A stretch of DNA of 64,000 bases from Cytophagales bacterium UBA2561 (GCA_002340355.1 DDLX01000042.1:7414-71413), one strand, 5' to 3'; shown: positions 1,037 through 46,804, counted from the first letter of the stretch. Numbers and translations: made by a program. The notes: generated from the letters alone by a model not told the origin.

Positions 1037-1429
1037 TTAAAAGTGCTTGGCTTCCTCAAATTCTAGTAAACCTGTTTCGCTATGTCGTCGAAAACTAATG
1101 ATTTTCATATTAATATTCGATAAAATCAGAAGTCGGTCTTCGGTTTGGTTGAGTGTCAGTGCGAAAGGCTGTGTTAAGTCATATCCTTCTTTGGCAGTCA
1201 AAACCTGAATAGGAAATGCCTTCTCAGATTTATCAATCTGATAAACATACAACTGTCTATCTTTCACCTCATACTTAAAGCGATCATCTGAGCTAATAGT
1301 TTCAAATTGTTTGGGATGTTTCAAGGCATATGCCAAAGCATCTAGCAAATCGGTTTGGGCATTTACATTATTTCCAAAATGAGAGAGCCCAAAAATAAAA
1401 ATGATGGTAAACATTCTTTTCATAATCAT
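1037..1429 (-). CDS. hypothetical secreted protein
   Basis: 130-aa ORF with an N-terminal signal-peptide-like segment (MKRMFTIIFIFGLSHFGNNVNAQ). No recognisable motif. Confidence 0.5.
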   Translation of the reverse strand: MIMKRMFTIIFIFGLSHFGNNVNAQTDLLDALAYALKHPKQFETISSDDRFKYEVKDRQLYVYQIDKSEKAFPIQVLTAKEGYDLTQPFALTLNQTEDRLLILSNINMKIISFRRHSETGLLEFEEAKHF

Positions 1430-3441: not shown

Positions 3442-3586
3442 TTAGAGGTTATTTAAATAAAATATTGATTGTCAAATTTTTACATGAATTTCCATAAAGT
3501 AGGGTTTGCAAACCTTACTTTATGGAAATCAGCGGTTTTGAGCAATGAAAGCTATTTCCCTAAAGATATTTTTAAACAACCTCTAA
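3442..3586. mobile_element. MITE-like element, family 1 (terminal inverted repeats plus central hairpin)
   Basis: The left end TTAGAGGTTATTTAAA and right end TTTAAACAACCTCTAA are inverted repeats. The core hairpin ATTTCCATAAAGTAGGGTTTGCAAACCTTACTTTATGGAAAT lies at 3488-3529. The element sits between convergent genes and is homologous to 36353-36534. Confidence 0.6.
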
Positions 3587-19208: not shown

Positions 19209-19250
19209 ATTTCCATAGCGTAAAGTTTGCAAACCCTACGCTATGGAAAT
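19209..19250. repeat. family-1 hairpin core, solo copy
   Basis: ATTTCCATAGCGTAAAGTTTGCAAACCCTACGCTATGGAAAT. It has the same arms and TTTGCAAA centre as 3488-3529, with paired AA/TT to GC/GC substitutions in the stem. Confidence 0.6.
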
Positions 19251-19510: not shown

Positions 19511-20893
19511 TCACACTTTGGAATCCACTTTTTCCATTTCCCCAATAATTCGCATGGTCTCAATGGATACCGTACAAACCCTTCGCAATAAGTCAATTAC
19601 GCTTTCTTTGTAGTCGGCAAAACGATAGGTATTGAACTTTTCAGCAATCGTTTTATCTCGTGGTTTCTTTTCCTTGTATTGGTCTAAAATCCATTCCAAC
19701 GCCGACCGATTGCCTAATTTGTAGTCCCATGCTTCGGTGGGAATATTGGATAAAGTCGTTAATTCATCTAAAAGAATTTCATCGGTTTTTTTGTCTCTTC
19801 GGAGCTTTGCTTTGGGAGTCGCTTCGGGATTTTTCAAGGGTTTATCCGTTTTTTTCAAAGGATATTTTTTGGCGGTTTCATAGTTCAAATGAAGGTGCAT
19901 CAATTCTTTTCCCCAGTCAGCCCATTGCCAAAAATCTTTATAAAAGGGAATACGAGGAAAATCCCGTTTCAAATTCTGCTCATATTTTTGGCGATATTCA
20001 GGATTATGAAGCACACCATACACATAATGGAAAATGTCAATTTTTTCGATTTCCCGTTCTAAACCTTCTTCTAAACCTTCTTCTAAACCTATAAGGTTTT
20101 CGAAAACCTTATAGGTTTCCCGAAATTCACCCAATGCCCAATCCGTGATATTTTCAAGCCTTTTGCCCTCTTCGTAGCGATAAAATGGGAGGCAATTAAA
20201 ACCGTCTGTACTTGCAGCGAAATGAAGCTCCGTAATTACTTTAGCAGAAATCGCTGTAAATGTTGAACGAAAAGCCGTATCACTTAGAATAATTGTTTGA
20301 TTACTTAAACTTGCTTTTTCTCCAAAAATATCCCTTTGCTTATATTGCATCTCATTCAAATCACGAGCGAAGTACAAATATTTTTTGACAAATGGTCTAT
20401 AACCCATTTTCACAATATTATCTTTCTCAAAAATATATTTTTTACCCTTAACCAAATCATTTTTAACAGCTCTTGTCCATTTGATAGAATAATCAATTTT
20501 ATCATTCACGTCCTTTTTTGAAATTCCTTTTAAGCGTTCTACCTCATTATTGTACTTTTCAATGAAATGCGTTACTTTTTTTTGAAGATTCTGCTTTTTA
20601 AAATCATAGACCCAAGCATCACGGGCTGTAACGACTCCCAAAGAAAATAATTTAAAAATGGCTTTTTCGTCTTTTGGCTCTTTACTCAGTTTGGTTTTCT
20701 TCGAACAAAGTGGGATTAAATCCTCAAAATCATTATCGGTTTGATTAATCCAATTTCCATTCTTATCAGGTCGGATAAGTTCGGCATTTTGGATAATTTC
20801 AGGCATGGAAGTTTGGCGTATTTGTTCTAACTTGGCAGTTTTATTGGGCATATTGGGCGCACGGAAGTAATAAATTTTAGCTTTTTTGGGCAT
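19511..20893 (-). CDS. C-terminal (target-recognition-like) part of a split type IIG/ISP-like N6-adenine DNA methyltransferase
   Basis: 460 aa. It begins MPKKAKIYYF... exactly where full-length homologs, as I recall them, continue after the catalytic domain. The C-terminal region (EAWDYKLGNRSALEWILDQYK) resembles the conserved tail of these enzymes. Confidence 0.6.
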   Translation of the reverse strand: MPKKAKIYYFRAPNMPNKTAKLEQIRQTSMPEIIQNAELIRPDKNGNWINQTDNDFEDLIPLCSKKTKLSKEPKDEKAIFKLFSLGVVTARDAWVYDFKKQNLQKKVTHFIEKYNNEVERLKGISKKDVNDKIDYSIKWTRAVKNDLVKGKKYIFEKDNIVKMGYRPFVKKYLYFARDLNEMQYKQRDIFGEKASLSNQTIILSDTAFRSTFTAISAKVITELHFAASTDGFNCLPFYRYEEGKRLENITDWALGEFRETYKVFENLIGLEEGLEEGLEREIEKIDIFHYVYGVLHNPEYRQKYEQNLKRDFPRIPFYKDFWQWADWGKELMHLHLNYETAKKYPLKKTDKPLKNPEATPKAKLRRDKKTDEILLDELTTLSNIPTEAWDYKLGNRSALEWILDQYKEKKPRDKTIAEKFNTYRFADYKESVIDLLRRVCTVSIETMRIIGEMEKVDSKV

Positions 20894-21069
20894 TTTTTTA
20901 GTTTGGTTATCAATCTTAAAAAGAATTTAAAAATATAAACAGGAATAAGAAAAACTTTTGTGTACTTTTACGTTCAATAAAGAAAGCCTTTGAGAGTTCC
21001 GAAGTCCTACGTGATACGTGGGGGGTAGTTGTAGGAGCTAACGGGGGCTTTTTTATTTTTTGAGCCTGA

Positions 21070-21897
21070 TTATTCAAGGCTACTTTCATCTACTTTTTCC
21101 CACTGATATGGCAAAAATCGCCAGTGCCTGTATGGGTGTTCCCAAAGGTTTGCTACGTTTCCTTCTGTGCCTGTAGTAATTCCAATATTAAAATTAGGAT
21201 ATACCTCCTTTATTTTTTGAAGTATGTGTTTATAGACTTTTTCTTTAGCAAGGGTTCTTTTGCCTCTGTTTTTGGCATTCGGTGGCTTTTGGAGGTGCAT
21301 TTTATTGAGCCGAAATGCCATTGCCCCCAAAACTACATCCAGACATTGGAGCAAAATATGTTGTTTGGAATCTACTTCTGATATCGCATCCAACTCAATA
21401 CGGATATTGGCTTTTTGGAAATCAGGGATACGTTGTAGGGAAAAAACATGATTCTTAAATAATTCGTTTTTTTGTTGAGTATCAGGGATTTCATCAAAGA
21501 AAAATTCAATGAAGTTTGGTGTTTTAGGGTTGAGATATTTGAGTCCAAAAGCGTGTTTTACAAACTGATAGTACAATAGATGATAGGCGTGTGCTTTTTG
21601 GTATTCACTTAGATTTACTTGTTTAAATGCATTTTGCGTAAACATAATTCGTACTTTAGCTTCATTTGCTTGAATATATTGAAAGAATAAGGTCATGATT
21701 TCGAGATAGCCTTCCAGTTGATAGGCATTTATTTTTGTCCATTTTAGTTCTGTTCCTAAATTCAAGGCTTGAGCCTGTTCGGTAAGTGCTTTCCTAATTC
21801 GTTCATATTGTGAGCTTTCTACCAATACCCCGCCATAAAAATCTGAGAAATAACTTCCTTTTTTTACGGATTCATCTAACCAGATGTAATATCTCAT
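21070..21897 (-). CDS. DUF3800 domain protein
   Basis: 275 aa. The N-terminal YIWLDES acidic motif and later LLQCLDVVLGAM match the DUF3800 pattern as I recall it. The ATG lies 6 nt after the stop of the upstream methyltransferase fragment. Confidence 0.55.
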   Translation of the reverse strand: MRYYIWLDESVKKGSYFSDFYGGVLVESSQYERIRKALTEQAQALNLGTELKWTKINAYQLEGYLEIMTLFFQYIQANEAKVRIMFTQNAFKQVNLSEYQKAHAYHLLYYQFVKHAFGLKYLNPKTPNFIEFFFDEIPDTQQKNELFKNHVFSLQRIPDFQKANIRIELDAISEVDSKQHILLQCLDVVLGAMAFRLNKMHLQKPPNAKNRGKRTLAKEKVYKHILQKIKEVYPNFNIGITTGTEGNVANLWEHPYRHWRFLPYQWEKVDESSLE

Positions 21898-21902
21898 TCT
21901 GC

Positions 21903-23633
21903 CTAATTTTTGACTTTTATTAAAAATAACACCGCCACACCTATCTGGATACCAAAAACATTATCAGAGGCATCAGTACCAGTACTTCGAAGGTCACCTC
22001 CCAAATCATAAATATAACAAAAATCAAATTCTTTTTCGACCATTTTACGAAATCCATCATCTTGACGCTTGTCAATAAAACTCCGATTACAAATAAAAGC
22101 AATAATACCATTTTGGTCAAGGCGGTCAGATGCCCAACGGATGAAACGCTTGTACATATCGTACTGCTTGGTTTTTTGGGCAGAACTGGCTTTGATATAA
22201 GTATCCTTGATTCGTTTGTCAATGTCGGGATAAGGACGGTTTTTATTGTTATCATTTTCATTCATCTGGTTGGCATTGTAGGGCGGATTTCCCATGATAA
22301 CCGAAATTTTCAGCTCATTTTGGCGTTTAATCCGTTCGACATTTTCCAAAGACATTGCACCAAACATATCACCTTGTTTACCAGCATATTGCAAGGCTTG
22401 GGTATTGTCTAAGGTATCCACAAAACACAGATTTTCAAACTCCTCATAGCTATTCATTTTTTGCTGGTAAACTGCCTCAATATTCAAATTTGCCACGTAA
22501 TACGGCAACAAAGCCATTTCGTTTGCGTGAATCTCATTTTTGTATTTGTATTCGAGTTGGTGCGGTGGAATGTGTTCGATTAATTCGGTAATATAAGTTC
22601 CCGTTCCCGTACAAGGGTCTAAAATCTGTACACCTTTGTCGCCTAATGTTTTTGAAAAATGTTTATCCAATAAGTAATCCGTGCCTTCCAACATAAACTT
22701 CACAATCTCGTTAGGCGTATAAACAATGCCTAAACGGTCTGCTCCTTTGGGATTGTAGGCTTGGTAGAAATTCTCATAAACTACTTTGAGGAATTTTTGC
22801 TTTTCGGCATGGCTCACCATCTCGTTCGCCCGTGCTTTGATGGTGTTGTAATACGGTCGTACTGAGGTTAATAGGTCTTGTTTGGTCTTGCCTTTGAAAA
22901 AGGTTCTTTCGAGTTCGTAAAGGGTTTCGGCAATGTTATTTTCACGATGAAAGTCAGCATTATCGAAGATGGAAATGAAGATTTCTTCGGTCAAAATATG
23001 CTGAATCAACATTTCCCGAACATCGGCTAACCCCAGATTGGGATTGATAGAATCCTTGACTAATTGCAGAAATTTTGAACGTTGTTTTTTGTACTTTGGA
23101 TTTTGTACAGCTTCTTTTTCAATTATTTGCCGAAGGGCATCCAAAATATTGGGTAAATCCGTTCCAAAATTCGCAATGGCTTTATTGAATTCTTGAACTT
23201 CGGGACGTTCGTAGGAGATGAATTGGTTTAAAATGTGAAGCAAGGCATCGGAGTCTTGCATTTTAATCTCCGTTTTTTTCTCATCTTGGACGAGAACGGC
23301 ATTAACGGTATCTTCGAACAGGATATTACTTTTGGGATATCCTTTCTTAAATTTCTTCTCAATTTCTTGGTACAGGTCGTCTTTGGAATCCTTGCTTTCC
23401 CAATAGCCATAATCCAACTGCAGGATATTTCGCAAAATGCCGTCTGGGGTAACGGTGGTCTGGAAAGGGGTTTTGAGGGAGACTTCAGTAACCAGCTCTA
23501 AATTTTTGGGTCGGGCTAAACCATTGACCAAATTGTAAAAGGCATTTCGAACAGTAGTTTCATTCTGAGACCCGCTAAATTGTTTGGCACGATGTAAGTC
23601 GCCATAATAGCGATTGATGAGAATTTTGGACAT
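21903..23633 (-). CDS. N6-adenine DNA methyltransferase, N-terminal and catalytic part
   Basis: 576 aa with AdoMet motif I ILDPCTGTGTY and catalytic motif IV GNPPY. It ends ...GIQIGVAVLFLIKVKN with no specificity domain. Confidence 0.8.
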   Translation of the reverse strand: MSKILINRYYGDLHRAKQFSGSQNETTVRNAFYNLVNGLARPKNLELVTEVSLKTPFQTTVTPDGILRNILQLDYGYWESKDSKDDLYQEIEKKFKKGYPKSNILFEDTVNAVLVQDEKKTEIKMQDSDALLHILNQFISYERPEVQEFNKAIANFGTDLPNILDALRQIIEKEAVQNPKYKKQRSKFLQLVKDSINPNLGLADVREMLIQHILTEEIFISIFDNADFHRENNIAETLYELERTFFKGKTKQDLLTSVRPYYNTIKARANEMVSHAEKQKFLKVVYENFYQAYNPKGADRLGIVYTPNEIVKFMLEGTDYLLDKHFSKTLGDKGVQILDPCTGTGTYITELIEHIPPHQLEYKYKNEIHANEMALLPYYVANLNIEAVYQQKMNSYEEFENLCFVDTLDNTQALQYAGKQGDMFGAMSLENVERIKRQNELKISVIMGNPPYNANQMNENDNNKNRPYPDIDKRIKDTYIKASSAQKTKQYDMYKRFIRWASDRLDQNGIIAFICNRSFIDKRQDDGFRKMVEKEFDFCYIYDLGGDLRSTGTDASDNVFGIQIGVAVLFLIKVKN

Positions 23634-36352: not shown

Positions 36353-36534
36353 TAAGAGGTTGCTTAAATTTTTATATAAAAATTTGACTATCAAGTTTTT
36401 ATATAAATTTTCATAAAGTAAGGTTTGCAAACTCTACTTTATGGACATCAGCGATTTTGAGCAATGAAAGCTATTTCAGTAAATAAAGTTTATTCTCTAA
36501 ATATATTTTTCAAAAATTTTTAAACAACCTCTAA
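36353..36534. mobile_element. family-1 MITE, longest copy
   Basis: Ends are TAAGAGGTTGCTTAAAT ... TTTTTAAACAACCTCTAA. It has the hairpin core at about 36408-36446 and shares the GTTTTGAGCAATGAAAGCTATTTC segment with 3442-3586. Confidence 0.6.
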
Positions 36535-37031: not shown

Positions 37032-37799
37032 TTATTTTTTGATGTAGTTTCTAATTTTCAAATAAGTAAAGAAACACATATTCTTAATGCTTTGTAAGCT
37101 TAATAGAACTCCTCGTGTCAAATTAATAAGTGTTTTGGCAGCAGTCGTTCCTATGCCTGTGATCGATGTCAGAATATTCATTAACTGTTTAAGTTGATCA
37201 TCATAGTCAATGATACGATTCATCTGCTTCTCAGCTTCTTTCAAGTCTTTATGTACCGTTTTCAAGGTATGTAAATAGCTTTTTTCCTTGAGTTGATAAA
37301 TAGGTTTTTTATCATGTATCTTCGACTTGTTTAGTTCAGCCTTGATATGATTTTTGACTATAATTAATTGAATACGAATGGCTTGTAGTGCTTGCAATTT
37401 TTCAATGGATTCAGAAGTGGGAATATACAATAAAGCATCCTCTTGGTACTGCCAAGCATATTCAGCAAGTTGATGTGCATCTACTTTATTTTTTTTACCT
37501 CTTTTTAATCCCATCGAATATCTAACTGTATTTACATTTTCAACCCAAATTGAATAGTCTTTCAGAATCAATGTATGTAATAAAACATTAATATAGTATC
37601 TCGTATTTTTCAAACAAATCAGGGTAGTTCTAATCGAAAAATCAGCATATTTCTCAGACCAAGTATTTACACAAGAAAGAATCCTTGTGGACTGATTTTC
37701 AATAATTTGATGATCTAAAATCTCCGAAGCAGTCCGCAAAGTCAGGTAAAGTGTCGTTTTTTGGACATCAATCCCAATAAAGTAGATATAATTTGGCAT
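37032..37799 (-). pseudogene. IS110-family transposase, C-terminally truncated
   Basis: The N-terminal DEDD-type region is present (FIGIDVQKTT). The ORF stops shortly after the helix-hairpin-helix start (ITGIGTTAAKTLI), before the conserved SG-containing C-terminal motif. No continuation was found in other frames downstream. Confidence 0.7.
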
Positions 37800-38090: not shown

Positions 38091-38870
38091 TTAAATAGGA
38101 TGAGTTTGTATAAAGGATTCCATTCCGAAAGATCCTTGATATATACCTGTCAAACTCACCAATAACTCGTTTGATTTACTTTCGTCATGGACTTCTCCAT
38201 CAAATCCCCCATTCTTGAGGTTTACTAAAATATCTTTAGTAGTTAAGTTCACTGAGTCTTTTTTTCCAGTAACCTTTATTATCATTTTATAGGGAATTTC
38301 TAAATCCTCCACCCAATTGATATACCATACCGCTTCAATCTTCGAGTTTGCTGGAATATTCAAAACGGTATCTATTTCATAAGCTTGTGATTGTCTGCTT
38401 GTCCATATCTGACCTGACTCAAGTATCAATTCTTGACCAGTCTCACTATTTTTATTTACTTGACTACTAGTTAAAAATGGAATCTTTAGTTCAGCTTCAA
38501 CACCAATAGTTATTTTATGACCATACATTAATGTTTGCTGCATAAAGAAAGTAAATGAACTATTTTTGGTCTCAGATGACTTTACGATTTGAGAAATTGT
38601 AGTATCAGTTGGATTCATATAAGTAAGTCTCCAAATCTCATTCCGTGAAATAGCTTTAGGAGGGCATGACTCTATCAGTGATTTTTCATACTCAATATCC
38701 ACAAGCTCAATACTCCAATCAATCAAATCATCATTAGGTCTTAATACAAACTCATACGGTTTTCGTCTATAACCTAAACTGTGACTTGAACTCATGCTAA
38801 CCTTTTTGCTCTTATGCCAAGTAGAACAAATATTGCTACTTGACGAGCTTGTTTCGAAGCTGTTGTTCAT
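38091..38870 (-). CDS. orphan protein, candidate aerolysin/ETX-MTX2-like beta-pore-forming toxin
   Basis: The 259-aa ORF is probably a real gene; the low confidence refers to the functional call. There is no signal peptide and the N-terminus is Ser-rich and disordered-looking. A Ser/Thr-flanked amphipathic alternating stretch (KITIGVEAELKIPF) and a beta-rich C-terminus ending LTGIYQGSFGMESFIQ are present. Confidence 0.35.
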   Translation of the reverse strand: MNNSFETSSSSSNICSTWHKSKKVSMSSSHSLGYRRKPYEFVLRPNDDLIDWSIELVDIEYEKSLIESCPPKAISRNEIWRLTYMNPTDTTISQIVKSSETKNSSFTFFMQQTLMYGHKITIGVEAELKIPFLTSSQVNKNSETGQELILESGQIWTSRQSQAYEIDTVLNIPANSKIEAVWYINWVEDLEIPYKMIIKVTGKKDSVNLTTKDILVNLKNGGFDGEVHDESKSNELLVSLTGIYQGSFGMESFIQTHPI

Positions 38871-39033
38871 AATTAGACGTATTTACTTTGGCATTTTCCT
38901 ATTCTTTCCGAGGCTTCTCACAAAATCGCCTCTAGATTGAATATTCTTCGCACCATTCATTTTACAGGTGTAAAAGTAGAGTGAATAAAAAGAATAGAAA
39001 AACCATAAAAAGAGAGCTATCTGATTTCCAAAG
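38871..39033 (-). promoter_or_regulatory. conserved promoter-plus-leader module, copy B
   Basis: Homologous to copies A and C. It has the -7-like box TACTTTTA followed by CTGTAAAATGAA (minus-strand first base 38967, which is 97 nt before the ATG at 38870), then a GAGGC...GCCTC stem. Confidence 0.55.
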
Positions 39034-39885
39034 GAGAGAAATATGCACTTTCTGAAACTCAAACTCGATGATTCAGGTAGGTTCAGATAAGTTTTGATGG
39101 AAGATAATTATCAGGAGTCCAAAAGAAATTTTTATAAAAAAAGAAAAATACGCTGAACATAGACGAGAATATAGAAGATTATTATTTTAATAACTTTATA
39201 TAAAGTTTCAATTTCTAGAGTAGAAAGAATTCCTCGAACTTGCCGAACGACCATTATAAAATTATGAAGCAGTGAATTCGTCGTACATTGAAAAGGATTT
39301 CATATTATCGGTTAGATCATTTCTCAATTGTTGACGCTCTTCATTTGAAGGTTTATCGGTGTTTAAATAAACTCAGAAGTATATTTGCGATAAGTTACCT
39401 ATCAAAATAAATTTCATTTCTGGATATTTGTAAGTTATCTCAAGTTGGATTTCAAGATTTAAATAAAGCAGGTATTTTTTAAATTTTGTGAGTCATGATA
39501 TTGTTATACTCTAATTTCAGAAATAAAATTAACTATATTTAGATTAGTAATACCCAAAAATCATCCCAAGATGTTAAATCAATATCAAATCTGAAGATTT
39601 GTGATGTATCTATTGAGTTTCACAAACTAAGAATCAGACGAATGGAGAAAATAAGGCACTGGCTTGGCAAATATAGAATGTAGGTTTACAGACCTATATG
39701 TTTGGGCTTTACACTATTTTAAAAGTAATTTTTAGTAAGTTAGCAATTTAATATATAGAAGTTATAAGTTATTTTTGATACCTATAAAGAGCATTTAATC
39801 AGCTTAGAAAGCTGTTTATTAACCCATCAAGAACAACATATAACTTCCCATAAATCACCTCAAAAACGTAACCTAAAAAAGAACA

Positions 39886-40887
39886 ATGAAAGAATTAAGC
39901 CGAAAGTACAAAGCTTTCAGAGTAGAAGAAATTGAAGGTAAATTCACATCTTCGATCAAAGAAGTAGAAATTAACTCCATTGAGTCAGGTGAAATCTTAG
40001 TAAAAGTATGCTACAGTTCATTAAATTACAAAGATGCACTGTCTGCCTCTGGAAATAAAGGAGTTACAAGAAATTACCCACACACACCAGGTATAGATGC
40101 AGTAGGTGTTATTGAGCATTCAGAAAGCCAAGATTTTACAGTTGGTGAAGAAGTAATTGTGACCAGTTATGATTTGGGAATGAATACAGATGGTGGTTTT
40201 GGAGAATACATCAAAGTACCTTCAAACTGGGCAGTAAAATTACCCCAAAAAATGACGATGCAAGAAGCTATGTTGATTGGTACCGCAGGATTAACGGCGG
40301 GAATGTCTGTATTGAGACTTGTAGAATTAATTACACCTGATGATGGGAAAATAGTGGTTTCAGGAGCTACAGGTGGTGTAGGTTCTGTCGCAGTAGCTAT
40401 TCTAAGTAAGCTGGGTTACTCGGTAGTAGCTATAACTGGAAAAGAATCGGAAACTGAATATCTGAAAGGGCTTGGAGCTAGCGAAATTTTATTGCGTAGC
40501 GAAATCGAAAACTTTAAAAATAGACCACTCTTAAAACCCTTATTTGCAGGCGGAATAGATACAGTGGGAGGTGTGATTCTTCAAAATATTATCAAATCAA
40601 CCTCAGCTTTAGGCGTTGTGACTTGTTGTGGAAATGTAGCTTCTCCAAAATTAGAACTGACCGTTTTCCCATTTATTCTAAAAGGGGTGTCTTTAATTGG
40701 TATCGACTCACAAAACTACCCCATGAAATACAGAAAAAAGGTTTGGGAATTGTTAGCCGAAGAGTGGAAAGTAAGTCAAGATACCTTAGCCTACAGCGAA
40801 GTAACACTTGAGGGACTCGAAGAAAAAATTGCTTTAATCTTAGATGGAAAGATAAAAGGGCGGACTATTGTAAATTTGAAAGCATAA
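39886..40887 (+). CDS. YhdH/YhfP-family (AcuI-like) NADPH-dependent quinone/acrylyl-CoA oxidoreductase
   Basis: 333-aa MDR-family protein. SSLNYKDALSASGNKGVTRNYPHTPGIDAVG closely matches E. coli YhdH as I recall it. Nucleotide-binding motif GATGGVGS is present. Confidence 0.85.
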   Translation: MKELSRKYKAFRVEEIEGKFTSSIKEVEINSIESGEILVKVCYSSLNYKDALSASGNKGVTRNYPHTPGIDAVGVIEHSESQDFTVGEEVIVTSYDLGMNTDGGFGEYIKVPSNWAVKLPQKMTMQEAMLIGTAGLTAGMSVLRLVELITPDDGKIVVSGATGGVGSVAVAILSKLGYSVVAITGKESETEYLKGLGASEILLRSEIENFKNRPLLKPLFAGGIDTVGGVILQNIIKSTSALGVVTCCGNVASPKLELTVFPFILKGVSLIGIDSQNYPMKYRKKVWELLAEEWKVSQDTLAYSEVTLEGLEEKIALILDGKIKGRTIVNLKA

Positions 40888-41352
40888 AAATACATCCCGA
40901 AAAAAATTGAACTGACCGTCTAATTGATTTTGAAGAACAAAATCAGACACAAAACACTAAAATTTTGTGTCTGGTTGTATTCAAAAAATAGAGGGTAGAG
41001 AGTCTGCAAACTACGCCAATAGTTCTATGTACAGGCTCTCTTCTTTTGTTGATTTAAAGAACTTGATGTGGATATACGAGCAAATAACATACTATGCAAG
41101 TATTTTAAATAAAATAATAAAAATATATATAAAAGAAATATTAAATCATTGATAATCAATATAAAAAAATATTAAGTTTACATGTATCTCTTAAAACTAT
41201 TTGCTAACTTTTTGAAAATTTTCTCTTAGATATTAGTTTGCTTTAACAGTATCATTCATTAAACTTAACATGAGTTTCATTTTTGTATCCTAGATAAGTA
41301 TATTTTTCAAAATGTTAGAACTACTGAAATAATATTTAAAACCAGTCGCCTC

Positions 41353-41910
41353 ATGAAAAATTTTGTTTCAAAATATATGATATATGAAGATAGTTCAATG
41401 ACTATTTTTATTTTGTCATCTCCTCTGATTTTGACATTCTTATCCTTTGCTTTACCCTTTCCACTAATTTTATTTCCCTGTCCACAAGTACTTTTGATAC
41501 TATTTTGGATGAATGTTTTAGTTGATGAATTAACGCAAAAAATTGATTTTGAGACAGGATTAAATATCACAAAACTCAAAAGATCTTTAAAAGTGGCGAT
41601 GTGGATAATGATTATTTTATCTATTCAAATTTATGCTTACCCGCTTATGTACAAAAGTAACCCTTCGTATTGGGTAATAATTTTGATTCAAATTATCACA
41701 GTCATAGAGTTTATATTGATGATATTCGCTTACTACATGATTAGTCATACTTCTCGTTTTATTGGCAAACTGATGTTTGTAGTTGAAATACAAAAACCTT
41801 TTCATAAACAAGAATATCGTTCAAAAAATTATAAATTAATGGGGCGTTTTTTTCCTTTCAATTATGGTAAAACACACCAAAAAATTCAGGAGTTATTAGC
41901 TTCTCCATAA
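41353..41910 (+). CDS. hypothetical membrane protein (start uncertain)
   Basis: The ORF has three or four hydrophobic segments. It overlaps an antisense ORF at 41307-41579, and neither has recognisable motifs. Confidence 0.3.
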   Translation: MKNFVSKYMIYEDSSMTIFILSSPLILTFLSFALPFPLILFPCPQVLLILFWMNVLVDELTQKIDFETGLNITKLKRSLKVAMWIMIILSIQIYAYPLMYKSNPSYWVIILIQIITVIEFILMIFAYYMISHTSRFIGKLMFVVEIQKPFHKQEYRSKNYKLMGRFFPFNYGKTHQKIQELLASP

Positions 41911-42101
41911 TCTGGCACAAGGCTACGCTTCAAAGCGGTCTTATGCCGATAATTTCTAAAGTTTCTGACTTTACCCAAGAATGGCAAATTAGATTATTTT
42001 TTATTTTTGAACTTGCAAAATAGTGATATTCAGCTTTGACAACCAACTGTCAAGCCACAGGCTTGGGAAAAAAGTAGGTACAAAACAAAGCCTTGCACCA
42101 G
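41911..42101. repeat. REPIN-like repeat unit, copy 1
   Basis: Shares CGATAATTTCTAAAGT.TCTGACTTTACCCAAGAATG...TTGAACTTGCAAAATAGTGATATTCAGCTTTGACAACCAA with 42693-42863 and 43646-43850. It is bounded by hairpins of the GG(T/C)RCAAG...CTTGYRCC type. Confidence 0.7.
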
Positions 42102-42108
42102 TAAGAGA

Positions 42109-42429
42109 TTAAGGAAATTTTCGATAAATATCCTTTCGGTGTAAAAAGCGTTTGAGAGAGAAAAAGCGATTATCTTCTGTTTCATTTTCGGTTTCTTCCT
42201 CTTCTTCGATTAATGCTCCGATTCGATAACTTTGTCCGACTTTAATCCGATAAGCATTTTCTGAACCTTCCATTTTTAGCATTTCTTTAATATCGGGAAC
42301 TTCTTCAGATTCAGTATTTTGAACAGCCTCTTGAATTTCGTCCAATTTTGCTTTCAAACGTTTGTTTAGGTTTTTGTCTTTCACCTTTTTGATGTCTTTT
42401 ATAAAACTTCGGCAAATGTCCAATTTCAT
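42109..42429 (-). CDS. RelE/ParE-family type II toxin
   Basis: 106 aa. YRIKVGQSYRIGALI ... LHRKDIYRKF matches the RelE/ParE core. The start lies 2 nt after the stop of the upstream small ORF. Confidence 0.6.
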   Translation of the reverse strand: MKLDICRSFIKDIKKVKDKNLNKRLKAKLDEIQEAVQNTESEEVPDIKEMLKMEGSENAYRIKVGQSYRIGALIEEEEETENETEDNRFFSLKRFLHRKDIYRKFP

Positions 42430-42431
42430 AA

Positions 42432-42647
42432 TTATTCTTGATCTAAAATGGCGTAAACTTCTTCTATATCAACAGATTCATTGTCTTCTCCTTCAACTTC
42501 TGCCATTGCGTTTTTCATGCCTTCGTTTTCAAAAACATCAATGATGATTTCTTTGACGGCTTCATAAAATACTTCCCGATTTTCAGCCATTAACTCCAAT
42601 AAAACTGATTTGATGACGCTTTTTAAATTATCTTCTGAGATTTCCAT
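42432..42647 (-). CDS. putative cognate antitoxin
   Basis: 71-aa acidic protein immediately upstream of, and codirectional with, the toxin. Confidence 0.5.
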   Translation of the reverse strand: MEISEDNLKSVIKSVLLELMAENREVFYEAVKEIIIDVFENEGMKNAMAEVEGEDNESVDIEEVYAILDQE

Positions 42648-42692
42648 GCGTTTCGATTTTTTGAAATTTAGAATACAAATTTAATCCTTTCC

Positions 42693-42863
42693 TCCTTGAT
42701 TATCAAATCAATATTATCGAAAAACAAACACTGACGCAAGGTTTTTATCTTGTGTCGATAATTTCTAAAGTCTCTGACTTTACCCAAGAATGACCAATGA
42801 GATTATTTTTTATTTTTGAACTTGCAAAATAGTGATATTCAGCTTTGACAACCAATTGTTACT
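42693..42863. repeat. REPIN-like repeat unit, copy 2
   Basis: Starts TCCTTGATTATCAAA as copy 3 does. It has long identical runs with copies 1 and 3, and its distal hairpin is replaced by the left arm flanking the transposase. Confidence 0.7.
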
Positions 42864-42930
42864 TACTGGTGCAAGTCTGAACGCAGTGGAGACTTGTACC
42901 TCACATGAAAGCAAGTTTGTAACTTGCGAA
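42864..42930. repeat. left inverted REP arm flanking the RAYT gene
   Basis: TACTGGTGCAAGTCTGAACGCAGTGGAGACTTGTACCTCACATGAAAGCAAGTTTGTAACTTGCGAA. Apart from a few bases it is the reverse complement of 43551-43617. It contains two hairpins (GGTGCAAGTCT/AGACTTGTACC and GCAAGTT/AACTTGC). Confidence 0.8.
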
Positions 42931-42981
42931 GTGAGTGAAGAAGTTTAACATTGGTAATCAGGCTATCATTTTTTACTATTT

Positions 42982-43546
42982 TTGAACAAAAGTAAAGGAA
43001 TGAGTAGAAAATATAAATTTTACAATTCAGAGGGGATTTATTTTGTATCTTTTGCCACGGTAAATTGGATTGATGTTTTTACAAGGCGTTGTTATAAAGA
43101 TATTTTGGTCGATAGCTTGAGATATTGCCAAGCTCATAAGGGCTTAGAATTATATGCTTGGATGATAATGACCAATCATGTGCATCTCATTATGGGTTCA
43201 ACCAAACAAGATTTGGCAGGTCTTGTACGAGATTTGAAAAAACATACTTCTAAACAAATCATTAAAAATATGGCTGAAAACCCACAAGAAAGCAGAAAAG
43301 AATGGATGCTGTGGATGTTTGAAAGAGCAGGCAAACGCAATAAGTAATAATCAAAACTATCAATTTTGGCAACAACATAATCACCCCATCGAACTGACAA
43401 ATCCTACGATAGTAGCACAAAAATTAGCTTATCTACATCAAAATCCTGTGGAAGCTGGACTTGTTACCGAGCCAGAAGATTATTGGTATAGTAGTGCCAA
43501 AGACTATGCGGAACAAAAAGGTTTTTTAGAATTGATTTTCATCTAA
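42982..43546 (+). pseudogene. REP-associated tyrosine transposase (RAYT, IS200-like Y1 HUH), frameshifted
   Basis: The HUH motif (TNHVHLIM) is in ORF 42982-43347. The catalytic-Tyr region (AYLHQNPVEAGLV) is in ORF 43319-43546. The two frames overlap by 29 nt, which is consistent with a single-base indel near 43340. Confidence 0.75.
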
Positions 43547-43550
43547 TATA

Positions 43551-43617
43551 TTCGCAAGTTGCAAACTTGCTTTCATTTTAGGTACAAGTCTCCACTGCGT
43601 TCAGACTTGCACCAGTA
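43551..43617. repeat. right inverted REP arm flanking the RAYT gene
   Basis: TTCGCAAGTTGCAAACTTGCTTTCATTTTAGGTACAAGTCTCCACTGCGTTCAGACTTGCACCAGTA, the inverted partner of 42864-42930. Confidence 0.8.
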
Positions 43618-43645
43618 GGGGATTAGCACAAAAATACGATTTTAC

Positions 43646-43850
43646 TCCTTGATTATCAAAAAACAAACACTGGCGCAAGGCTTTTGTCTTGTGTCAATCA
43701 TTTCTAAAGTCTCTGACTTTACCCAAGAATGACCAATGAGATTGTTTTTTAATTTTTGAACTTACAAAATATTGATATTCTGCTTTGAGAACCAACTGGC
43801 AAGCCAGAGACTTGGGAAAAAGGGAGGTACAAGACAAAGCCTTGTACCAG
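43646..43850. repeat. REPIN-like repeat unit, copy 3
   Basis: Same architecture as copy 1, ending GGTACAAGACAAAGCCTTGTACCAG. Confidence 0.7.
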
Positions 43851-44010
43851 TTTTTAAGTTGCTTAGACCAGATGGGGTGAGATAAAAATCCTGCTTAACG
43901 AAGAGTACTTGAAAAAAATGGATTTCGTTGGGTCAAGACTTTACACCAAACCCCTAGTTATCCCGAAAAATTCAAGCAAGGCAGTAGAGTGGCAACTGAC
44001 TCACTGACTG

Positions 44011-44172
44011 CTTTGAACCTGTGATAATCGCCTTTTTTTGTCTTTTTTCTACCTAAAGTTGCCTCTACCTTTACCCCTGTAAAATGAAACAAAAACAAAC
44101 AATTCATTTTATAGGCGGATTCCGAAAAGCCTCATTTTAAAGAGAGTAGGGAAGATTTAAAATTTTAAAATT
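44011..44172 (+). promoter_or_regulatory. conserved promoter-plus-leader module, copy A
   Basis: It has the -7-like box TACCTTTA at 44066-44073 and CTGTAAAATGAA at 44077-44088, 96 nt before the ATG at 44173. The stem TAAAATGAA/TTCATTTTA is present. The 28-nt block CATTTTATAGGCGGATTCCGAAAAGCCT (44105-44132) is identical to copy C. Confidence 0.55.
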
Positions 44173-44889
44173 ATGCAAAGTAATGCGGATGAGCAAAAGA
44201 TTACGAAACTTCTAGCATCAGAACCACTTAGTATGACCGTTGAGGTGGCAGGAATGGGGGGCGCAGGAGGAGATATTACAGCCACTAAGGGAGATAATCT
44301 CTGGATAATCGAAGTCAAGGGTAATAATAATAAGTGGATGTCCACAAACAATCAGAAAGGTACTGGAAATGTTCCTGCGAAGCAACTATATAATAAGTTA
44401 TCTCCTACTTTGTCGAAGACGGATTTAGGTTTTATATCATCATCGCCTAGCGATGCACAAAAATTTTTTCTCAATTTACTACTGGCAACAACTGGAATAG
44501 GAGATTATAATTTCCTTTATGTGAAATATAATTCTTCGGATGAGAGCAGTAAAATAACTGGACATGGTCCGATTAACTCAACAATTATGAAAGCTGTATT
44601 TAATTCAAAAGAGCCTTCTTATGAGAAGTTAGAAGCTATGGAGAATAATGAAGTTTATAACTTCAGAAACTGGGTGATACAAAATGCAGAGGATTTTATA
44701 GATGTTGTAGGTGAGTTTACCGATAAACTGAAAAATATGTCTGCAACAGAACGAGGAAAGATTACTGCCCTTCAAAACGCTCCTCAATTAAATAAGGATG
44801 AAGAACTTGTACTTATTCCTGTATTGGACTTCAATGATTACAAGAATCAAAATGCTAAGACACTGTCAAAGCAACTCTACATGGAGTAA
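44173..44889 (+). CDS. orphan protein with an N-terminal Hjc-like PD-(D/E)xK nuclease-fold core
   Basis: DEQKITKLLASEP...VAGMGGAGGDITATKGDNLWIIEVKG parallels the archaeal resolvase Hjc core (ERELIKLLEK...[24 protein letters not shown], from memory). The D-x12-E-x-K spacing is the same. The remaining ~170 aa are unrecognised. Confidence 0.45.
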   Translation: MQSNADEQKITKLLASEPLSMTVEVAGMGGAGGDITATKGDNLWIIEVKGNNNKWMSTNNQKGTGNVPAKQLYNKLSPTLSKTDLGFISSSPSDAQKFFLNLLLATTGIGDYNFLYVKYNSSDESSKITGHGPINSTIMKAVFNSKEPSYEKLEAMENNEVYNFRNWVIQNAEDFIDVVGEFTDKLKNMSATERGKITALQNAPQLNKDEELVLIPVLDFNDYKNQNAKTLSKQLYME

Positions 44890-44989
44890 TACTAACCCGT
44901 AGTAAATTATTTTAACGATTCAATAGTCCATAAGATAAATTATTTCAATAAAACTTACGAGCTATTGAACATTTAACATATTCAATAAA

Positions 44990-45811
44990 ATGGAAAAACA
45001 GTTAAGTTTAACAGAATCAGAGGAGCAAAAAATAAATACAGCTCTTGAACATACCTATGGTCGTCAGTCAGATGTACAGGCAAAAATGGGCAAAATAACT
45101 GCCTTAGTCAAAGGAGTTGAGTTAGATACTGTGACCACAAAATATATCTCCGAGGTCCTCATAAATGGATTGTGTGGAGGTTGGGTAGAGGTATTTATGC
45201 GATATCCAGATTGGGTAGAGCCAATTTATAATGCCGTACGTTCATGGAAAAGCTCATCAACTCTCCCTACGAAAGAGATGCTTGAAGCCTTTAAAAATCA
45301 TCTGGAAAAGACGACTAAATTTAATGGTACGGAGCATCCTGTTAGGCTATTGCATGATGTGTATGATGCAATGGGGCGTTTAGAGCCAGAGGCAGGTTAT
45401 GACAGTTTACCAAAATGGACAAATCTTAAAATAGGGGGACTTCCTATTTGTCCTACATTTAACCCCAAAATTCAGCTTGTAGAAACAAAATATAATTTGA
45501 GAAATAAAAATGCTGCTCAACTTGTTTGTCAAACAATTCAACAATTAACCAAGCCCGAGGTAAAAGGGGAATGTATGGCTCATATTGAGTCCGATAGTCA
45601 TCATATGGCACTACGGGTACAAAAAATACCTAAACCCAAAAGTACAAAGCTACGCTTATTAATTACAGTAGTAGAAACTGAGAAGAAAGGCATCGTGAAA
45701 ATCAATGATTGGAAACAGGTTGAATCGATTCTGAATTCATGGCTTGCTGAAGCAGAACCTAATCTAAAGTCTATTATTGTGCGGACCAAGTCAGTTGGTT
45801 TTAAACAATAA
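44990..45811 (+). CDS. orphan protein, possible papain-fold Cys/His enzyme
   Basis: 273 aa with no signal peptide. NGLCGGWVEVF recalls the G.C......W catalytic-Cys context of YopT/C58-like peptidases, and a later SHHMALRV strand could carry the His. This is a weak, pattern-only call; the low confidence refers to function, and the ORF is probably a real gene. Confidence 0.25.
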   Translation: MEKQLSLTESEEQKINTALEHTYGRQSDVQAKMGKITALVKGVELDTVTTKYISEVLINGLCGGWVEVFMRYPDWVEPIYNAVRSWKSSSTLPTKEMLEAFKNHLEKTTKFNGTEHPVRLLHDVYDAMGRLEPEAGYDSLPKWTNLKIGGLPICPTFNPKIQLVETKYNLRNKNAAQLVCQTIQQLTKPEVKGECMAHIESDSHHMALRVQKIPKPKSTKLRLLITVVETEKKGIVKINDWKQVESILNSWLAEAEPNLKSIIVRTKSVGFKQ

Positions 45812-45832
45812 AACCGCTCTTTAAACCTGTTC

Positions 45833-45862
45833 TTTGTAGGGATAAGTGCTTGTCCCTACAAA
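45833..45862. terminator. hairpin between convergent genes
   Basis: TTTGTAGGGA-10 nt-TCCCTACAAA starts 22 nt after the stop at 45811. It is A/T-flanked on both sides. Confidence 0.4.
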
Positions 45863-46124
45863 TAATTTCAGAATTATCATAATCTTTGAAACCTCTTTTT
45901 CTACTTTTTATCCTTTTGTTGTCCTAAGTCTTTAGCTTGCGATGACTTCAAATACACAAATCTGAAGATTTGACCCATGTATGACACTTTATATTTGTCA
46001 TTCTAACGTCGAGTCTGAAGATTCGTAGCATTTTTACGACGTAGAGACGCTTCGCTAAACTCTACGCCGAACGAGGGTCTCGCAAGCTAAGACTCAGACG
46101 AACGAGGGCAACCTTAATTTACAC

Positions 46125-46583
46125 TTAGTTTGCTTGTTCTAATGGCAGAATTTCTAATATTGTATGTCCATAATGCATACCAACGGTAAGATTAATCCTA
46201 CCTTCATAAATTAAGAGTTCACATGGTCTTGCATTTAATTCTGGTGTGAGACTAACCTCTCCATTTGCAGAAATGACACCTAATATACTGTCAGTGGTAT
46301 GTTGTTCTCTCATAGTTCTAATAACGCCCATGATGGTATCATAGACCCTATGAGAGTTATTATCTTCTTTGAAGTAGAAAATAACTGTATTGGTGTCCTC
46401 ATTATATACTTGCCCTCCTTGTCTTTGTCTTTCTTGGTTTCGAGGAGCATGACGAGTTACTGAGTTAGTAGTTACTGTATAAGTAGACTGTAATTCAACA
46501 TCTTCATTCTCTTGACCCGTTCGAAATCTTGCTGGTATATTCCTCCAATTTGTACCTTCAATAGTAGGATTATTCTGTTGCAT
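46125..46583 (-). CDS. orphan hypothetical protein
   Basis: 152-aa ORF placed immediately after leader copy C. The N-terminal third is polar and disordered-looking, the C-terminal part is beta-rich, and I recognise no motif. Confidence 0.5.
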   Translation of the reverse strand: MQQNNPTIEGTNWRNIPARFRTGQENEDVELQSTYTVTTNSVTRHAPRNQERQRQGGQVYNEDTNTVIFYFKEDNNSHRVYDTIMGVIRTMREQHTTDSILGVISANGEVSLTPELNARPCELLIYEGRINLTVGMHYGHTILEILPLEQAN

Positions 46584-46746
46584 TTTAAATATTGATATAA
46601 AATTTCCCTACTCTATTTATTATCAGGCTTTTCGGAATCCGCCTATAAAATGGAGCTTGTGCGCATAATTCATTTTACAGAAGCAAAAGTAGGTGGGATA
46701 AAAAGGGGAAGAAAACCAAAAAAAGCGGGTTATCACAATTCCAAAG
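46584..46746 (-). promoter_or_regulatory. conserved promoter-plus-leader module, copy C
   Basis: On the minus strand it has the -7 box TACTTTTG, then CTGTAAAATGAA (first base 46680, 97 nt before the ATG at 46583). The 28-nt block at 46625-46652 is identical to copy A. Confidence 0.55.
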
Positions 46747-46766
46747 GAAGTTTGACAGGAAAAATA

Positions 46767-46804
46767 AAAGGCATTCGTACAGCAAAATACGAATGCCTTT
46801 TTTA
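46767..46804. terminator. bidirectional rho-independent terminator (serves purL)
   Basis: The 13-bp stem AAAGGCATTCGTA/TACGAATGCCTTT is flanked by an A-run and a T-run. It lies about 10 nt beyond the purL stop. Confidence 0.6.

Follow-up and report, generated by a model that had tools for sequence, protein, structure and literature searches.

A duplicated promoter-leader cassette with DUF805b RNA in a Cytophagales accessory island, and a tentative role for the pseudoknot at translation initiation

Why should three unrelated orphan genes in one bacterial genome be preceded by nearly the same stretch of non-coding DNA? This question is raised by a 64,000-nt stretch of Cytophagales bacterium UBA2561 (GCA_002340355.1 DDLX01000042.1:7414-71413), here called the window, whose source contig material derives from coral black-band-disease metagenomes collected in Belize (SRR1822516, JGI 3300003317). 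A preliminary description, made from the sequence alone, had proposed that three segments of the window (modules A, B and C; Table 1) represent a promoter-plus-leader element matching no described motif and defining a regulon of toxic effectors. Based on homology searches, an Rfam scan and a survey of the wider family, we found that the trio are new members of the DUF805b RNA family, two canonical (A and C) and one decayed (B), embedded in a locally duplicated promoter-leader cassette. We tentatively suggest that DUF805b is a cis-acting pseudoknot of the 5' untranslated region (UTR) which works at translation initiation, and that it is a generic expression element and not a toxin-specific switch.

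Three homologous promoter-leader modules

Each module alone was used as an nhmmer query against the window, and each query retrieved only the other two, with E values of 2.7e-18 (A-C), 3.5e-13 (B-C) and 1.8e-6 (A-B), which confirms the homology first noticed from the sequence alone. A profile of the three modules found no fourth copy in the window or in ~18 kb of further sequence from the same 125-kb contig (~82 kb in total). In the alignment of the three, a stretch of ~165 nt is conserved with a mean column identity of 74%, and the homology is limited by the ATG of the following gene at one end and approximately by CCTTTGGAA at the other. The open reading frames (ORFs) behind the three modules are mutually unrelated. 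The best explanation is that one complete promoter-plus-5'-UTR cassette gave rise to the three segments as paralogous copies, by duplication within an accessory island of ~8 kb in a Bacteroidota genome.

Most of the shared elements were present just as they had been listed. The exact 12-mer CTGTAAAATGAA starts 96 nt before the ATG in A (ATG at 44173) and 97 nt before it in both B (38870) and C (46583); a 28-mer, CATTTTATAGGCGGATTCCGAAAAGCCT, is identical between A and C; a -7-like box stands 3 nt ahead of the 12-mer in all copies; and the purine blocks read AGAGTAGGGAA in A and C and AGAATAGGAAAA in B. One other element turned out to be less widely shared than described: CTTTGGAA is found in B and C only, A reading CTTTGAAC instead. 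The putative first stem-loop (leader hairpin 1) is retained in A and C only. The view that these segments are a promoter-proximal 5' leader tied to the start codon, and not a randomly placed repeat, stood up well, since the copies are always close to a gene, oriented with it and end at its ATG.

The conserved core is DUF805b RNA

Based on a scan with Rfam 15, the second stem and the purine block together are DUF805b RNA (RF02914, type Cis-reg, clan CL00115), so the statement that no described motif matches the modules has to be withdrawn. Copies C and A score 42.1 and 39.8 bits over the full model positions 1-35, both above the gathering threshold (GA) of 35.6 bits. Copy B, with 14 bits (E=5.8), falls below the threshold and is a non-member by score; its common descent with A and C is shown by the homology of the flanks.

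The hairpin of A and C reads AGGC / GGATTCCGAAAA / GCCT, with a loop of 12 nt, and that of B has a 5-bp stem and a 13-nt loop, GATTTTGTGAGAA. The predicted pseudoknot of A and C consists of UCC:GGG with one U-G wobble, or of UUCC:GGAA in a register shifted by one; in copy A, family covariation would place it between 44121-44123 and 44149-44151, with 22 nt remaining to the ATG. In B both loop Cs have changed to Us and the tail reads AGAAUAGGAAAA, which leaves only weak U-G and U-A pairing.

Weinberg et al. 2017 (PMC5737381) reported 224 motifs, DUF805b among them, and the alignment of those authors, as recorded in a supplementary file of the CaCoFold paper, comprises 3582 sequences, 35 columns and 7 base pairs. 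Seven annotated pairs match the four of the hairpin plus the three of the pseudoknot, and the pseudoknot is therefore very probably already part of the published model and not new. Window copies A and C agree with the family in the hairpin, the loop GGANNCCGAAAA, the tail AGAGUAGG, the phylum and the 5'-UTR position. They differ from it in a linker of 10 nt where 2-6 nt is usual, in a covarying pseudoknot position that is a U-G wobble (or lies in a shifted register), and in the addition of a 5' hairpin and a conserved promoter region of ~75 nt that are outside the family. Copy B differs further in being far under the threshold.

DUF805b as an H-type pseudoknot

We scanned a genome collection with the pattern CCTACTCT-N(6-16)-TTTTCGGNNTCC, in which the loop and tail signatures are fixed whereas the stem and the pseudoknot partners are free. 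The resulting sample consists of 132 instances from at least 120 genome loci, and all family-wide counts given here refer to the matches listed. Among 80 listed record titles, 78 are Bacteroidota from many orders of the phylum, and one non-Bacteroidota exception lacks the stem and is a chance match.

The first stem of the family (P1), which is the second stem of the window modules, has 3-5 bp of free sequence across the 132 instances. In a MAFFT alignment, double substitutions number 78, 27 and 77 at its three core pairs and 1-5 of 127 cells per pair are unpaired, and the covariation check that had been suggested for this stem is thus positive. The second variable loop position, N2 in GGA-N1-N2-CC, is Watson-Crick complementary to the base after AGAGTAGG (N') in 126/132 instances. 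On the alignment the N2:N' pair is G-C in 78, U-A in 19, A-U in 18 and C-G in 5 cases, with 3 of 127 unpaired, which amounts to 44 compensatory changes, and the CC:GG pairs beside it are invariant. The N1 position does not pair (unpaired in 95/127). Overall, 83.9% of the cells are paired, compared with 59.7% in column shuffles, none of 500 of which reached the observed value, and with no more than 46% after displacement of the partners by 1-3 columns. Throughout the phylum, the unpaired bases GGA, GAAAA and AGAGUA do not vary.

This covariation shows DUF805b as a predicted H-type pseudoknot of 35-45 nt, in the order P1, GGA-N, the 5' strand of the second helix (P2) N-CC, GAAAA, the 3' strand of P1, a linker with AGAGUA, and the 3' strand of P2, GG-N. 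Its consensus is a stem of 3-5 bp closing GGA-NN-CC-GAAAA, followed by a short linker and the tail AGAGUAGG-N, whose GG-N forms pairs with the N-CC of the loop.

We also found tandem pseudoknots, placed back to back before a single gene, in L107 (around 1280-1400, minus strand) and L200 (760-840 and 1400-1480, plus strand). The first unit of L200 has the variant loop GCACACCGAAAA and retains an ACC:GGU pseudoknot pairing.

Position relative to the start codon and the promoter

Spacing is the number of nucleotides between the last base of AGAGTAGG and the nearest following ATG that starts an ORF of 40 codons or more. Its mode is 22 nt and its median 23 nt, with 77/132 instances at 19-26 nt and 105/132 at 15-40 nt. 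The window copies have spacings of 22 (A), 23 (C) and 27 nt (B), and those of the phage copies range from 12 to 37 nt, nine of eleven being within 21-28 nt. The offset of 96-97 nt in the window can accordingly be broken down into a lineage-specific part that runs from the 12-mer through hairpin 1 (~35 nt), the pseudoknot (~40 nt) and a spacer of ~22 nt, of which only the spacer is a family-wide constraint. The offset as a whole, which had been taken for a functional constraint, is not a property of the family.

In the family survey the spacer is composed of 48% A, 31% U and 6% G, and its A content reaches 70-77% at positions -13 to -11, 56% at -6 and 63% at -3. In Flavobacterium johnsoniae, mRNAs lack a Shine-Dalgarno sequence and adenines at -3, -6, -12 and -13 raise translation (Baez et al. 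2019, PMC6847099). Precisely this pattern of adenines is seen in the sequence that separates DUF805b from the ATG, and DUF805b directly abuts the A-rich, Shine-Dalgarno-less initiation region of Bacteroidota. The determinants described in that work are unstructured sequence only and include no upstream structured element.

Relaxed -7-like boxes are enriched about 2-fold at 0-40 nt upstream of the hairpin relative to 60-150 nt, which suggests that transcripts usually begin a short way upstream of the pseudoknot. In the window, 39 nt separate the end of the -7 box from P1, and transcription would be expected to start downstream of this box. Module C begins directly after the terminator of purL, and an independent promoter is supported by this arrangement. 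A strict TAnnTTTG box was also considered as a general upstream feature and was rejected; it occurs in 13/132 instances within 25 nt upstream of the hairpin and in only 15/132 within 60 nt.

The upstream half of the modules

The promoter and 12-mer half of the module, in contrast to the RNA core, is lineage-specific. The -7 box plus 12-mer pattern gave 6 metagenome and 37 viral matches, mostly within coding sequence and in no case followed by DUF805b, and words from the window modules are not enriched upstream of the other DUF805b members in the 132-instance survey. As a wider signature the pair was rejected, since in the other collections searched it never precedes DUF805b. In the phage contig L036, the hairpin is identical to that of the window and the sequence TTTAC-NN-CTGTAA is held in common at equal spacing, which fits a role of the first half of the 12-mer as a promoter or initiation site.

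Complementarity between the upstream pyrimidine tracts and the tail was seen in two copies. In B the tract TTTTTCTATTCTTT (38989-39002) is complementary at 13/14 positions to its own purine block (38894-38907), including B's own G-to-A change, and in C the segment CCTACTTT within the -7 box (46684-46692) is complementary to AGAGTAGG (46607-46614). As an anti-tail or expression platform the upstream tract was rejected, since family-wide 12 cases were observed against 7 expected, which is no real enrichment. The pairing in B and C is probably a chance effect of low complexity, and the two tracts would precede the point where transcription presumably begins; the pairing would gain importance with a start site located farther upstream.

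Genes and phages downstream of DUF805b

Proteins encoded downstream of DUF805b are mostly small (90/118 below 200 aa), and for about half of the 118 a crude rule predicts an N-terminus resembling a signal peptide or a membrane segment. When 117 of the proteins were scanned against Pfam, 47 families were returned, none with more than five members, with examples including DUF6520, outer membrane protein (OMP) beta-barrels, subtilases, DUF805, sorting domains of the type IX secretion system (T9SS), crystallins, a lanthipeptide dehydratase and rhodopsin. Peptidases, small orphans and phage genes are further classes. The genes of a single pathway or transport function that are the mark of a metabolite riboswitch are not seen in this set of 117 proteins, and a motif preceding such heterogeneous genes, together with phage genes, does not define a toxic-effector regulon at the level of the family.

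In a scan of IMG/VR with the hairpin pattern, 89 viral contigs had at least one exact match, some of these being chance matches in G+C-rich coding sequence. The set includes many human-gut phage contigs of ~100 kb, with the motif at one conserved locus, and several smaller phages, and the Rfam model confirmed copies in phages and in metagenome-assembled genomes (MAGs) as DUF805b. Phage copies are located upstream of small orphans and of a ParB-like gene. Clusters of several copies before consecutive unrelated genes, with shared flanks, occur in the Flavobacteriales MAG L114 (four copies) and in the phage contig L015 (three copies, two of which share ~75 nt upstream). The window trio is typical of the DUF805b family and not special.

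In L018 (5560-5850, minus strand) and ~60 similar gut phage contigs of ~100 kb, the sequence AAAGGAGGTGA-N5-ATGAAATAA, a perfect Shine-Dalgarno followed by a start-stop mini-ORF, is found ~60 nt upstream of DUF805b. The gut-phage DUF805b may be part of a longer leader or of a small RNA.

Cargo proteins of the three modules

The four cargo proteins behind the modules (Table 1) gave no convincing family match in Pfam, NCBIfam, PHROG or PADLOC. For the 259-aa protein of module B, a word-indexed search returned only the protein itself, and an exhaustive phmmer search found 77 relatives. Among 37 relatives that were aligned, 24 match ETX_MTX2 and 11 match Aerolysin, often in fusion with ricin-type lectin domains, and a profile of the alignment matches the natterin-like protein 4zno (1.4e-18), LSL 1w3a and Cry23Aa1. 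The protein itself has no direct Pfam match, so the link to ETX_MTX2 and Aerolysin is transitive, through its relatives; in this way the sequence evidence supports a distant aerolysin/ETX-MTX2 relative, and the earlier suggestion of a beta-pore-forming protein is borne out to that extent. It differs from such toxins in having no signal peptide and no lectin or other targeting domain of the kind found in most relatives. A single-sequence AlphaFold model of this protein had a pLDDT of 32 and was unusable.

One homologue, 44% identical, was found for the 238-aa protein of module A. The 273-aa protein encoded behind it has no similarity to the C39-like peptidase encoded after the 238-aa homologue in L265, and searches of PDB sequences with the 238-aa and 273-aa proteins gave no match. 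In other metagenomes, the closest homologues of the 259-aa and 238-aa proteins have no DUF805b upstream. The leader was therefore joined to these genes in the present lineage and was not co-inherited with them.

Table 1. Features of the three modules and of the genes behind them (window coordinates)
Feature	Position	Strand	Remarks
Module A	44011..44172	+	Promoter-like region, 5' leader and DUF805b predicted pseudoknot; ends at ATG of 238-aa gene
Module B	38871..39033	-	Diverged copy upstream of 259-aa gene
Module C	46584..46746	-	Same cassette upstream of 152-aa gene; starts just past purL terminator
DUF805b RNA, copy A	44112..44152	+	P1 44113-44116 with 44129-44132; loop GGATTCCGAAAA 44117-44128; AGAGTAGG 44143-44150
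DUF805b RNA, copy C	46605..46645	-	P1 46644-46641 with 46628-46625; loop 46640-46629; AGAGTAGG 46614-46607; 23 nt to ATG
Degenerate DUF805b-like hairpin, copy B	38896..38932	-	P1 GAGGC 38932-38928 with GCCTC 38914-38910; AGAATAGG 38905-38898; 27 nt to ATG
Presumed promoter/transcription start region of A	44066..44088	+	Box TACCTTTA 44066-44073, 3 nt, 12-mer CTGTAAAATGAA 44077-44088; inferred from Bacteroidota TAnnTTTG consensus
-7 box and 12-mer of C	46669..46691	-	Box TACTTTTG 46691-46684; 12-mer 46680-46669
-7-like box and 12-mer of B	38956..38978	-	Box TACTTTTA 38978-38971; 12-mer 38967-38956
Leader hairpin 1 of A	44076..44115	+	12-mer arm pairs with TTCATTTTATAGG, abuts P1; 13 nt, 92% complementary
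Leader hairpin 1 of C	46643..46680	-	10 nt, 90% complementary
Intrinsic purL terminator	46766..46801	-	Immediately upstream of module C; 15-bp stem, then T-run
259-aa cargo gene (module B)	38091..38870	-	Probable distant relative of the aerolysin/ETX-MTX2-family pore-forming module
238-aa orphan gene (module A)	44173..44889	+	One distant homologue found
273-aa orphan gene (second behind module A)	44990..45811	+	
152-aa orphan gene (module C)	46125..46583	-	

Possible function of DUF805b

What, then, does the element do? The action in cis at translation initiation that we provisionally favour is suggested by the combination of a conserved pseudoknot near the transcript 5' end, a fixed distance from the AUG, a strong initiation region that it abuts, the lack of a pathway link and the use by phages. 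With an AUG in the P site, a structure ending at -22 would sit just outside the mRNA exit channel, on the platform side of the 30S subunit. A pseudoknot that ends ~22 nt before the AUG borders the A-rich, Shine-Dalgarno-less initiation region on its 5' side; as a small folded element where the mRNA leaves the 30S subunit, it could promote or tune ribosome loading and keep the initiation region unpaired. The invariant unpaired bases point to a conserved binding partner, for which the ribosome or some factor common to the phylum is more plausible than a metabolite, since the genes are so heterogeneous and phages use the motif. A generic element of this kind would serve many accessory, envelope and phage genes.

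A bolder version, which we regard as doubtful, is that DUF805b is a phylum-wide, Shine-Dalgarno-independent ribosome-docking element that on some accessory, envelope and phage mRNAs stands in for the absent Shine-Dalgarno interaction, by binding the 30S platform, the mRNA-exit region or ribosomal protein S1 at a fixed ~22 nt from the AUG. If this were true, the duplicated cassettes of the window, of L114 and of the phage contig L015 would be portable 'expression plugs' for newly acquired genes.

Several points weigh against a general role at initiation. In the gut phage contigs of ~100 kb the next ATG is ~110 nt away and two hairpins come after the motif, so the -22 rule is not universal. Copy B has lost most of the loop signature bases and has kept the cassette, which means that either the pseudoknot is dispensable there or B is decaying. 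The conservation of unpaired bases would equally fit a sensor of a ligand or a protein, and a mere insulator or stabiliser would not need conserved unpaired bases. In the literature, we found no functional study of DUF805b beyond the discovery paper, and the Rfam type is only Cis-reg.

The foremost alternative, which we consider unlikely, is such a sensor, either a small pseudoknot riboswitch or an operator for an RNA-binding protein, whose folding switches downstream translation on or off. In the riboswitches preQ1-I, SAM-II and guanidine-III, a hairpin loop in the 5' UTR pairs with a 3' tail, and these RNAs bury a Shine-Dalgarno a few nt from the AUG, upstream of genes of one pathway. DUF805b, with the topology computed here, is comparable to them in size and H-type architecture, and its unpaired GGA, GAAAA and AGAGUA are invariant throughout the phylum. 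The tandem copies of L107 and L200 recall those of some riboswitches, and the signal-peptide-like or membrane-like N-termini of roughly every second downstream protein might reflect a signal connected with the envelope. However, DUF805b belongs to a non-Shine-Dalgarno phylum and ends 22 nt upstream of the AUG, overlapping neither the start codon nor a Shine-Dalgarno. The downstream genes are unrelated and have no common pathway, and the motif is common in phages, upstream of orphan genes. Searches on both sides of the motif revealed neither an alternative pairing partner that recurs nor an expression platform, and no similarity to known riboswitch classes was seen in Rfam at E values up to 10.

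It is improbable that the pseudoknot is mainly a stabiliser of the mRNA 5' terminus, shielding short transcripts of accessory and phage genes from decay that depends on the 5' end, and taking no direct part in initiation. The promoter-like boxes at 0-40 nt upstream do place the structure near the transcript 5' end, and the window has a further hairpin at the very 5' end. For a stabiliser, however, invariant loop bases and a fixed distance from the AUG are both unnecessary, and many copies have no recognisable promoter nearby.

We give a similarly low likelihood to a regulon confined to this genome, in which a dedicated regulator of toxin-like or defence-like island orphans acts on the 165-nt cassette as a whole, the conserved stretch ahead of the -7 box (CTTTGGAA...GATAAC...T-tract) being part of the target. 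Conservation is roughly equal in the upstream half and the RNA half in the alignment of the three copies, all of which lie in one variable island with an IS200-like transposase and a RelB-like antitoxin, and one cargo protein is a putative aerolysin/ETX-MTX2 relative. On the other hand, recent duplication explains the conservation equally well. Only three copies are present in the ~82 kb of contig; the upstream half was not found with DUF805b elsewhere in the collections searched; and three of the four cargo proteins have no recognisable function. There is a weak possibility that the upstream half carries an operator common to the three genes in this one genome.

Two further explanations are very improbable. 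Although the modules are repeats in both orientations in an island with transposase genes, a miniature inverted-repeat transposable element (MITE) or other selfish repeat, named earlier as the reading that would displace the leader, does not fit copies that have no terminal inverted repeats or target duplications at the module ends, that each face a gene and end at its ATG, and whose core is a structured RNA with phylum-wide covariation. A regulatory leader peptide, opened by the ATG of the 12-mer and running through the hairpin for 16 to 25 codons (A MKQKQTIHFIGGFRKASF*, C MNYAHKLHFIGGFRKA*, B MNGAKNIQSRGDFVRSLGKNRKMPK*), could be drawn in all three copies and was rejected, because B and A/C are separated by an indel, so that their frames do not match the nucleotide homology, and because no frame is conserved in the family, 75/132 instances having no ATG-started ORF over the loop and the rest being spread over three frames.

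The locus adds three instances of a catalogued motif and is no discovery in itself. The survey sharpens the picture of a very common orphan RNA present in thousands of copies, with its strict start-codon spacing, its abutment to a Shine-Dalgarno-less initiation region, its use by phages and its lack of a pathway link. How Bacteroidota select and rank mRNAs without Shine-Dalgarno sequences is an open question, and a structured element at -22 gives a testable handle on it. In addition, DUF805b may provide a portable expression part for the engineering of Bacteroides and Flavobacterium.

The surrounding island

The island houses several mobile and accessory components. An IS200-like Y1 transposase gene (42982-43347, plus strand) is flanked by 67-nt inverted repeats (42864-42930 and 43551-43617) that are 96% complementary; direct repeats of 112 nt, three in number and all containing terminator-like hairpins, also surround the gene at 41939, 42748 and 43687 (region 41939-43850). 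A gene for a RelB-like antitoxin of 71 aa (42432-42647, minus strand) is followed by a partner gene of 106 aa (42109-42429), and the two are probably a toxin-antitoxin pair in the same island. Beside the module B gene, a 255-aa ORF (37032-37799, minus strand) matches the transposase PHROG phrog_2199 (E=1.7e-16), which is further evidence for an accessory island.

Elsewhere in the window, a 42-nt near-perfect palindrome, ATTTCCATAAAGTAGGGTTTGCAAACCTTACTTTATGGAAAT, is present in three copies (3488-3529, 19209-19250 and 36407-36448), two of them inside 121-nt repeats (3452-3572 and 36371-36491) that are 84% identical. We also found a second catalogued RNA at 19511-23633, where a DUF3800-VIII RNA (20984-21050, plus strand; 40.5 bits against a GA of 40.2) lies 20 nt from a DUF3800 gene (21070-21897, minus strand). 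This RNA-gene pair is located between the two parts of a Type ISP restriction-modification enzyme, an N-terminal coupler with an N6 methylase (21903-23633) and a C-terminal specificity domain (19511-20893), and looks as if it had been inserted into the Type ISP gene.

The island is polymorphic. Compared with the window at ~40900-41350, the sequence L004 (6294-7640) from another sample (JGI 3300031541) contains two additional genes, one of the HTH_3/Peptidase_M78 kind and one of 73 aa, with the 185-aa ORF on one side and the alcohol-dehydrogenase gene on the other.

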